Assembly: GCF_003334815.1 (NCBI RefSeq)
Contig: NZ_QOWO01000107.1
DNA length: 1,086 nucleotides
Strand: one strand, 5' to 3'
DNA from: Escherichia coli
GTDB lineage: Bacteria > Pseudomonadota > Gammaproteobacteria > Enterobacterales > Enterobacteriaceae
Below are positions 455 through 1,086 of this stretch, piece by piece. The number at the start of each line of letters is the position of its first letter. The first letter of the stretch is position 1. The position numbers and the translations under genes are program-made. Under the pieces are notes generated by a model that was not told the origin of the DNA, made no database searches, and saw only the letters and a program-made list of their open reading frames with translations.

Positions 455-519
455 TTTTATCTCCTGCCCGTCCGGGCCCTGAATGAAAGAAAACCTGTTT
501 CCCTTCTCTGTTTTTTTAT

Positions 520-644: not shown

Positions 645-911
645 TCAGTGGCAGACCCGTTCAATTTCAAGCGCACGGAGCAGGTGCCCCCACTCGCTGA
701 CTTTCATGGCGGGGATACGCACCCGCTTCCGCTCACTGCAGCGTCTGGCGATATGACCGCCCATCGCCAGGACGTCCGGGTTAATCTCATCCGGTGCCAG
801 TTCCTGGCGTCTGAAGCGGGTATGGCGGTGCAGGGGTTTGTTCTCCCGCAGGCACTCTTCACGCAGACGCTTTACATATTCAGCCGTTGCAAAGATAATT
901 GATGGTCTCAT
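645..911 (-). CDS. Hypothetical small basic protein, 88 aa, Arg-rich; possible nucleic-acid-binding or regulatory protein, family not recognised
   Basis: This is the lower part of the 645..1007 ORF in the track. ATG at 911..909 is preceded by GGAG (923..920) with an 8-nt spacer. The product is MRPSIIFATAEYVKRLREECLRENKPLHRHTRFRRQELAPDEINPDVLAMGGHIARRCSERKRVRIPAMKVSEWGHLLRALEIERVCH. By hand count it has 19 R/K, 5 H and 12 D/E. An alternative start is ATG 1007..1005, which overlaps the upstream stop as ATGA and gives 120 aa. That version has no SD, and its extra 32 codons lie over two strong stem-loops. Confidence 0.6.
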   Translation of the reverse strand: MRPSIIFATAEYVKRLREECLRENKPLHRHTRFRRQELAPDEINPDVLAMGGHIARRCSERKRVRIPAMKVSEWGHLLRALEIERVCH

Positions 912-940
912 GGCATAATCTCCATAGTTCGTGAATGAGA

Positions 941-971
941 TGCCGGACTTCCGTACGGGGAAGCGCCGGCA
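941..971 (-). promoter_or_regulatory. 31-nt imperfect inverted repeat / second stem-loop in the leader of the basic-protein gene
   Basis: The outer stem TGCCGG (941..946) pairs with CCGGCA (966..971). The inner stem CTTCC (948..952) pairs with GGAAG (959..963) around a 6-nt loop. The outer and inner stems are separated by a small internal loop. The element lies 30 nt upstream of ATG 911. Its function (operator, attenuator or RNA-stability element) is not determinable from sequence. Confidence 0.35.
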
Positions 972-1004
972 GAGAAAGGCAGGGTTTATCGCCCTGCTTT
1001 TTTT
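972..1004. terminator. Intrinsic-terminator-like hairpin with A/T tracts on both sides (potentially bidirectional)
   Basis: The stem GCAGGG (979..984) pairs with CCCTGC (992..997) around a 7-nt loop. On the plus strand it is followed by T7 (998..1004), a textbook terminator. On the minus strand it is preceded by A7 and followed by CTTTCTCT, a weaker U-tract. It sits immediately after the upstream gene's stop codon. Confidence 0.5.
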
Positions 1005-1086
1005 CATTCCGGACAGCGACGCAGTGCCAGCGCGAGCGCTTTCATCTTCCAGCCTTCCGGCGTGCGGTACATCACCTTCCAGTAGC
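1004..1086 (-). CDS. C-terminal end of an upstream gene of unknown function (partial, enters from the right edge of the window)
   Basis: The minus-strand frame starting at 1084 reads YWKVMYRTPEGWKMKALALALRRCPE and stops at TGA 1006..1004. Its codons are mostly enterobacterial-preferred (ctg, gcg, ccg, gaa, cgc). The competing open frame contains cta, agg and gga. A hairpin follows 7 nt after the stop. Only 26 codons are visible. Confidence 0.45.
   Translation of the reverse strand, partial: YWKVMYRTPEGWKMKALALALRRCPE

Follow-up and report, generated by a model that had tools for sequence, protein, structure and literature searches.

A putative AS-pc01-like antisense RNA gene opposite the ygdA leader in the leading region of IncI-type plasmids

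The 1086-base stretch of Escherichia coli DNA studied here (contig NZ_QOWO01000107.1; "the window" below always means this whole stretch) recurs with 100% identity on many E. coli plasmids, and it was matched in 1349 of 5426 complete E. coli genomes, nearly always on plasmids. Annotated records place it in the leading region of IncK2/Z, IncI-gamma/K1 and related conjugative plasmids, where the minus-strand genes are ssb, psiB, psiA, ardA, ygcA, ygdA, ccgAII and ygdB (of the Rpn family), with nikA/nikB and oriT lying past ygdB. Our subject is the short spacer between ygcA and ygdA together with the beginning of ygdA, and in particular two stem-loops that an initial annotation of the window had described there. 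Judged from the sequence, these hairpins are most likely the body and the terminator of an RNA of about 100 bases that would be read from the opposite strand, against ygdA. The features to which the argument refers are the following.

871..876, plus strand: -35 hexamer TTTACA, opposite ygdA codons 12-14 (from a scan for sigma-70-like sites)
894..899, plus strand: -10 hexamer GATAAT, opposite ygdA codons 5-6, separated from the -35 by 17 nt
906..1004, plus strand: predicted antisense small RNA of about 99 nt, with its start placed to within 2 nt on either side and its 3' end within the T-run
906..940, plus strand: stem-loop SL1, the 5' domain, in which TCTCAT 906-911 pairs with ATGAGA 935-940 (from the fold)
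941..971, plus strand: stem-loop SL2 (hairpin 2), bipartite, with 6 bp (941-946/966-971) and 5 bp (948-952/959-963), 11 bp in all
972..978, plus strand: single-stranded purine-rich spacer GAGAAAG, the 7 nt between SL2 and SL3
979..997, plus strand: stem-loop SL3 (hairpin 1), the terminator stem, GCAGGG 979-984 with CCCTGC 992-997 around a 7-nt loop
998..1004, plus strand: T7 tract, the terminator U-tail of the predicted RNA; base 1004 is also the first plus-strand base of the ygcA stop codon (1004-1006)
912-1003: spacer between ygcA and ygdA, 92 nt
920..923, minus strand: GGAG, the Shine-Dalgarno (SD) sequence of ygdA as read from the sequence, 8 nt 5' of the ATG and a proposed target of the antisense RNA
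645..911, minus strand: ygdA coding sequence (CDS), 88 aa, ATG at 911 (RefSeq WP_001247861.1; named ygdA in pN270)
1004..1086, minus strand: 3' end of ygcA (144 aa), stop codon TGA 1004-1006, from the RefSeq and plasmid annotation
65-454, minus strand: ccgAII, 129 aa, from the annotation

The hairpins are present in the sequence as the initial annotation had described them. Hairpin 1 (SL3) has on the minus strand A7 before it and CTTTCTCT after it, and on the plus strand it is followed by the T7 run; hairpin 2 (SL2), with its 11 bp in two segments, lies 7 nt away. Read on the plus strand, SL3 has the make-up of an intrinsic terminator (a 6-bp stem with five G-C pairs, a 7-nt loop and T7 directly after it), whereas the tail on the minus strand contains 5 T in 8 positions. 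Folding of the region 930-1015 in both orientations gave z = -4.5 for the minus strand and z = -5.3 for the plus strand, with none of 200 shuffles equally stable, i.e. the region is far more stable than shuffled sequence on either strand. The whole sense-strand leader folds with z = -3.0, and the 99-nt plus-strand RNA (906-1004) with z = -4.3, forming three stem-loops at -43 kcal/mol. The first of these, SL1, encloses CAT (909-911) and CTCC (920-923), which are complementary to the start codon and the SD sequence of ygdA, respectively; the sequence of this domain is poorly conserved among homologues. An RNA spanning 906-1004 could pair without a mismatch with the leader of ygdA, from the stop codon of ygcA through ygdA codon 2, including the ATG (911-909) and GGAG (923-920).

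A promoter that could drive such an RNA lies inside ygdA. The pair TTTACA-17-GATAAT (871-899, plus strand) is the sole sigma-70-like site in the window, with 10 of 12 matches, scored by consensus alone. Its -10 element ends 6 nt ahead of position 906, and a start is expected about 7 nt past the -10. On the minus strand the same scan reported no site between the hairpins and ATG 911, in agreement with the initial annotation, which had noted the lack of a sigma-70 -35/-10 pair before this codon on the sense strand. That annotation had correctly recognized the hairpins and the terminator in the antisense direction, but it had not linked them to the plus-strand promoter within ygdA, and consequently it framed them as attenuator or processing elements of the sense operon.

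The comparative analysis covers 53 loci with a ygdA homologue, which represent 47 distinct sequences with protein identity down to about 31%; a scan with one genome per species added 44 loci encoding YgdA relatives. The hosts include Escherichia, Yersinia, Buttiauxella, Hafnia, Serratia, Edwardsiella, Pantoea and others. In 53/53 loci the strand opposite to the gene carries, in the same order, a promoter-like pair, SL2, a purine-rich spacer, SL3 and a run of T. The equivalent -35 element is TTTACA or TGGACA in every locus and is followed, after 17 nt, by xAxxAT. Both hexamers are invariant in 11 relatives from the IncI complex, while third-codon positions of the spacer vary at 4 of 5, and codon entropy is low at the valines that overlap the promoter (0.46 and 0.93 bits, vs 1.3 and 1.95 bits at other conserved valines). 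The complement of the start codon is CAT in the homologues, or CAC where the gene starts with GTG, and the complement of the SD sequence (CTCC or TCCTT) is found in most of them. SL2 has a GCCGG...CCGGC-like base and a variable inner helix, SL3 follows the pattern GCAGnn...nnCTGC, and the purine-rich segment between them measures about 6-10 nt in nearly all homologues. The claim that the terminator is better in the antisense than in the sense direction is borne out by the same comparison: on the antisense strand a T-rich tail with 4-7 T stands 3' of SL3 in 47 of the 47 distinct homologues, usually as one unbroken run and at times with a single C or G before or within it, whereas in the sense direction the tail has merely 2-5 scattered T in 8 positions and no run.

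The pairing itself is preserved in a set of 42 distinct sequences, which were aligned with the SL2 base as an anchor and scored in the outer SL2 helix and the terminator helix. Paired cells account for 95.7% of these helices, as compared to 32-47% when the partners are slid by 1-3 columns. Compensatory double changes occur at 8 of the 13 pairs (71 cells), and the observed covariation score was reached by none of 500 column shuffles. The outer SL2 helix is kept throughout the 42 sequences, with compensatory changes at 6 of its 7 pairs; even inside the IncI complex the fifth pair of SL2 has changed from G-C to C-G (locus L057). The SL3 helix is paired in 100% of cells, and its positions 5 and 6 covary, one between G-C and A-U and the other between C-G and G-C, with two additional U-G cells.

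A side observation concerns the 5' domain. In some IncI-gamma/K plasmids (L056, L057, L059) ygdA starts with GTG, its SD sequence is AAGGAG, and the part of the 5' untranslated region (UTR) between the start codon and SL2 (alignment columns 46-76, corresponding to 911-941 in the window) has been swapped for an unrelated sequence, while the promoter and the terminator are identical; the 5' domain of the putative RNA is thus mosaic between close relatives.

The closest catalogued relative of this arrangement is AS-pc01 (RF02875), listed as "Antisense to pHK01_035", an antisense RNA of the IncFII plasmid pHK01 (Rfam entry). In IncF loci this family is found above its threshold (79-110 bits); only L004, L010, L011, L044 and L061 reach it, and among the clades tested that are not of the IncF type none does. 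The primary paper on AS-pc01 is that of Jiang et al. 2017 (FEMS Microbiol Ecol 93:fix090). In four of these loci (L004, L010, L011, L061) AS-pc01 is antisense to a ygdA homologue and has its 5' end 6 nt within the CDS, i.e. the same geometry as position 906 with respect to ATG 911 in the window, and in pEG356, a CTX-M plasmid of the IncFII type, AS-pc01 occupies the same position opposite a ygdA homologue. A search of the 12-kb IncI leading region at the Rfam gathering threshold gave no match. A covariance model, R1, was built from 14 IncF-type copies only and contains no IncI-type sequence. Its only significant match in the window is the plus-strand segment 907-1003, a full-length alignment that scores 24.4 bits; the E-value is 1.7e-5 for the window by itself and 0.003 when 196 kb of loci are searched. 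Intermediate clades score between the IncF copies and the window, with E from 1e-9 to 1e-3. It appears that the Rfam threshold catches only the IncF-type copies near pHK01, so that the curated family is a narrow slice of the existing members.

The likeness extends to the details. Both in AS-pc01 and in the window the target belongs to the ygdA family, the 5' end lies 6 nt within the CDS, the 3' end falls in a T-run, and the length is about 99 nt; both have a 5' hairpin with the anti-SD sequence in its loop, a bipartite stem with a GCCG...CGGC base, a purine-rich spacer and a GCAGG...CCTGC terminator. On the other hand, the inner helix of SL2 and the entire 5' domain of the window element are unrelated in sequence to those of AS-pc01. 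The flanks also differ: in the window ygcA lies upstream and ccgAII/rpn downstream, while the IncF loci have a long non-coding segment upstream and genes for DUF3560 and S-adenosylmethionine (SAM) methyltransferase proteins downstream, and the window locus lies on the oriT-proximal side of ardA, while the IncF AS-pc01 locus is distal to ssb. On sequence grounds, the window element belongs to the AS-pc01 family of antisense RNAs, as a diverged member that had not been catalogued before. In the literature on ygdA, ygcA and AS-pc01 we found no description of an IncI-type RNA. A second, degenerate copy of the element was observed in a Cedecea contig (L025:2618-2760, minus strand; 27.6 bits with model R1). 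It keeps the promoter-like hexamers, SL2, SL3 (with one mismatch) and the T-run; in place of CAT the complement of the start codon is TAC, and no ygdA-like open reading frame (ORF) of at least 50 aa is listed beside it. Possibly this copy is a duplicate in decay, or else an antisense RNA gene that has become an orphan.

Taken together, these data lead us to propose that the plus-strand segment 871-1004 is probably a small gene for a cis-encoded antisense RNA related to AS-pc01, a proposal to which we assign a probability of roughly three in four. Several observations weigh against it. A permissive search aligned the full RF02875 model (1-99) with plus-strand positions 906-1002, but the score of 15.5 bits (E about 1-9) lies below the gathering threshold of 79 and is not significant alone. 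A simple terminator scan reported the hairpin on the minus strand only and lacked the plus-strand site, an omission that we tentatively attribute to the extension of the stem into the A/T tracts in the folded structure. Covariation in the stems is blind to strand, and the count of G-U vs A-C cells over all helices, 7 vs 11, does not decide between the two; the terminator helix taken by itself shows 3 G-U cells in the antisense orientation and lacks A-C cells. A synonymous-recoding test gave no sign that the promoter exceeds the strength expected from the encoded amino acids (p = 0.08-0.66), so the conserved residues (S-I-I/V and V-K/Q) explain part of the conservation of the hexamers. In favour of the proposal, AS-pc01 amplicons have been obtained from complementary DNA of E. 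coli outer-membrane vesicles (PMC12370729), although this reverse-transcription PCR is not known to be strand-specific. The assignment to the antisense strand follows from two other features, namely the T-rich tail, which is present in the antisense direction only, and the outward-facing promoter, whose distance to the RNA body is constant.

The alternatives differ mainly in the molecule in which the hairpins would act, or in whether the region would be translated. The spacer also reads as part of an ORF of 120 aa whose ATG overlaps the stop codon of ygcA as ATGA, so that 912-1007 could be an N-terminal extension of YgdA. This ORF, reported in the initial annotation, does appear in the ORF listing (645..1007); its frame is open in the window and in loci L012 and L013, and forms of 119-122 aa are reported by some gene callers (P0061-P0066). 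The question raised there, whether the region is a structured leader or coding sequence, was a fair one, and the comparison favours the structure and rejects the coding extension: among relatives it is the pairing that is kept, by compensatory changes, and the 912-1007 frame that is lost. The spacer is 91, 92 or 93 nt long among close relatives from the IncI complex, with the T-run ranging from T6 to T8; the frame is closed in L014, whose protein is 97% identical, and in most of the divergent loci; and those sequence changes that do occur keep the base pairing. Moreover, there is no SD sequence before ATG 1007, but GGAG stands 8 nt ahead of ATG 911, the RefSeq annotation gives the 88-aa form, and the protein cluster with an 88-aa representative has 1103 member sequences vs 1-9 for the long forms. 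We regard a coding role of the spacer as hardly tenable. The length of the T-run (998-1004) is itself polymorphic among near-identical plasmids, which have T6, T7, T8, or C followed by T6 or T7, and this explains why some gene callers give a "long YgdA" of 119-122 aa and others the form of 88 aa. A much less remote alternative is that the hairpins act in the sense mRNA, as a leaky or bidirectional terminator, an attenuator, or an element of processing or stability. Complementary hairpins necessarily form in the sense transcript, the tail CTTTCTCT with 5 T in 8 looked terminator-like in the minus-strand scan, A7 upstream fits a bidirectional terminator, and in a spacer without a sense promoter read-through must cross these structures. 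Nevertheless, in none of the 47 homologues is the sense tail a U-run, while the antisense T-rich tail is universal, the outward-facing promoter accompanies the element in every case and at constant spacing, we noticed no obvious mutually exclusive structures that would hint at attenuation, and a role confined to the sense mRNA would not account for the cataloguing of the IncF version as an antisense RNA in its own right. We consider such a role unlikely as the main one, though a secondary function of the complementary hairpins in the sense mRNA of this window, e.g. as a leaky terminator, is possible. With respect to the operon, the first of the two options given in the initial annotation, that ygdA is read through from upstream, is probably right, because the 92-nt spacer contains no promoter on the sense strand, and ygcA is probably the gene that supplies the sense transcript; the attenuator- or processing-like role of the hairpins suggested on that basis gives way to evidence that favours a separate antisense gene.

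Two further explanations take the plasmid setting as their point of departure. The window plus strand is the transferred strand, as inferred below, and it folds well as DNA (z = -4.05), and leading regions are known to contain promoters active in single-stranded DNA (ssDNA), including newly described classes (PMC12672017); the hairpins might accordingly be an ssDNA promoter or a priming signal of the Frpo/ssi type. However, the stems are merely 6 and 11 bp long and, on direct reading, contain no -35/-10 hexamers that pairing could rebuild, whereas the described ssDNA promoters are large stem-loops (PMC12672017). Under this explanation the T-run and the outward double-stranded promoter would have no role, the terminator helix contains G-T pairs, and the IncF homologue is catalogued as an RNA, all of which makes it very improbable. 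A type I toxin-antitoxin system, in which YgdA would be toxic and the antisense RNA would be the antitoxin, with the pair aiding plasmid maintenance, is somewhat easier to entertain, but it too seems improbable. Its geometry would resemble that of SymR/symE; leading regions often hold modules of the hok/sok type, and the sok RNA is detected in pEG356; and the degenerate copy in L025 retains the RNA-like part despite the lost start codon. Yet YgdA is basic and hydrophilic, with no obvious membrane segment; a low-confidence model of its structure matches no known fold; and the protein is conserved over many plasmid types beside methylase and anti-restriction genes, which suggests that it has a function of its own.

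If the antisense gene is real, its action can be envisaged as follows. The promoter at 871-899, which faces against ygdA, would start the RNA near 906; the transcript would cross the complements of the start codon and the SD sequence, continue through SL2 and end at SL3 and T7, which abut the stop codon of ygcA. By analogy with FinP/traJ, SymR/symE and RNA-OUT/RNA-IN, pairing of this RNA with the ygdA leader would occlude the SD sequence and the AUG and block ribosome binding; additionally, the RNA-mRNA duplex may be a substrate for RNase III. Either effect would hold down ygdA, and possibly also the downstream genes of the same transcript. The gene order relative to nikA and oriT indicates that the plus strand of the window is the strand transferred in conjugation. 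This strand is the template of the leading-region genes; being identical in sequence to the antisense RNA, it cannot also be the template of that RNA, so the RNA could be made only after the incoming plasmid has become double-stranded. One would then expect ygdA to be expressed unopposed for a short time early in conjugation and to be silenced in the established plasmid. Such a course would match that of the leading regions of IncI1 and F plasmids, in which early transcription from ssDNA promoters fades as the DNA turns double-stranded (PMC12672017). Production of the RNA from the IncI-type copy, the repression of ygdA and the logic of timing are all what we infer from the arrangement of the locus. 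A more speculative extension, which we put forward as a tentative idea rather than as the expected outcome, is that the AS-pc01-like RNA acts as a sensor of plasmid strandedness, by which the early genes would be free of the antisense RNA only as long as the plasmid is single-stranded. If this were true, the RNA family would represent a post-transcriptional shut-off of early establishment genes in plasmids of Enterobacterales, covering ygdA and, in other plasmid groups, the downstream methylase and anti-restriction genes; it would act alongside the ssDNA promoters, which are known to be inactive on duplex DNA.

The proposed element has several analogs among known systems. FinP of F-like plasmids is a constitutive, plasmid-encoded cis-antisense RNA of about 80-100 nt that is complementary to the 5' UTR of traJ, including its ribosome-binding site. 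The FinP/traJ pair (RF00107) is like the predicted RNA in its stem-loops and terminator and in the coverage of the 5' UTR and ribosome-binding site of the target. However, the two share no sequence or family relation, FinP is located separately in pEG356, and its target is the transfer activator traJ, while that of the predicted RNA is the small protein YgdA; we know of no FinO-like partner of an AS-pc01-like RNA. In the SymR/symE system transcription of the antisense RNA begins just within the toxin ORF, by a few nucleotides, and the RNA spans the SD sequence and the AUG. With SymR/symE, as well as with RNA-OUT/RNA-IN of IS10, the window shares an antisense promoter located in the first codons of the target and directed outward, and the coverage of the SD sequence and start codon; on the other hand, the sequences are unrelated, the target proteins are different, and neither toxicity nor a function in transposition is indicated here. 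SL3 also resembles bidirectional intrinsic terminators, in which a GC-rich hairpin lies between an A-tract and a T-tract (979-997 with A7/T7). Unlike in these terminators, only the tail in the antisense direction is a conserved T-run, and therefore the two-way character of SL3 appears incidental.

In its own right this is a tidy but fairly ordinary regulatory element. Its description nonetheless has consequences for annotation: the spacer between ygcA and ygdA is better regarded as a putative gene for a small non-coding RNA than as part of a longer ygdA, and the catalogued AS-pc01 would be the visible tip of a far wider family that goes with ygdA-type genes in plasmid leading regions, in IncI/K/Z, IncF and many further enterobacterial groups. 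Plasmid establishment and anti-defence are governed by genes of this region, and a conserved putative antisense brake among them is a concrete element that can be tested.

The target protein offers few clues. Inspection of its sequence characterizes the 88-aa YgdA as given above, public records call it only a "hypothetical protein", and the window protein has no match in Pfam, NCBIfam or PHROG, while an IncF homologue has a sub-threshold, HU-like match in Pfam. Sequence-profile matches to the PDB are weak (uL4 and TCP15, E of 0.3-1), and with an AlphaFold model based on a shallow alignment (predicted local distance difference test score of 70, i.e. low confidence) Foldseek found no PDB match with E < 1. 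A large protein search with YgdA returned only close relatives and frameshifted fragments. Homologues of ygdA occur in at least 5000 plasmid records, among them distant ones in IncF and other plasmids with 43-45% protein identity. In other plasmid groups the ygdA homologue is followed by a gene for an N-6 DNA methylase, or by DUF3560 and a SAM-dependent methyltransferase, and the ygdA-family gene is usually the first in a short operon that goes on with a DNA methylase, either an N-6 methylase or DUF3560 together with a class I SAM methyltransferase (L005-L009, L004 and L061). The operon found in F-like plasmids is seemingly that of the M.EcoGIX homologue, for which a new class of ssDNA promoter is reported (PMC12672017). 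In Buttiauxella noackiae (L054:1387-1500) the N-terminal part of the ygdA homologue is seemingly duplicated in tandem, with MKDKFIVACQEYFVKQ... repeated as KDKFIAACQEYFVNQ, which makes the choice of the start codon uncertain in this locus.

Among the neighbouring genes, YgcA often goes by the name "post-segregation killing protein PndC" in public records, and the name given to CcgAII is "cobalamin biosynthesis protein CbiX". Pfam and NCBIfam hold no match to either protein, and these public names look like propagated mis-annotations; YgcA does match phrog_1987 and phrog_23089 (E about 1e-20), two PHROGs whose function is unknown. The other spacer of the window, 190 nt between ygdA and ccgAII (455-644), gave no Rfam match and no significant match to model R1; it contains a T7 tract (512-518, plus strand) within a possible CCTGTT/AACAGG hairpin, as well as a GGAGG motif.

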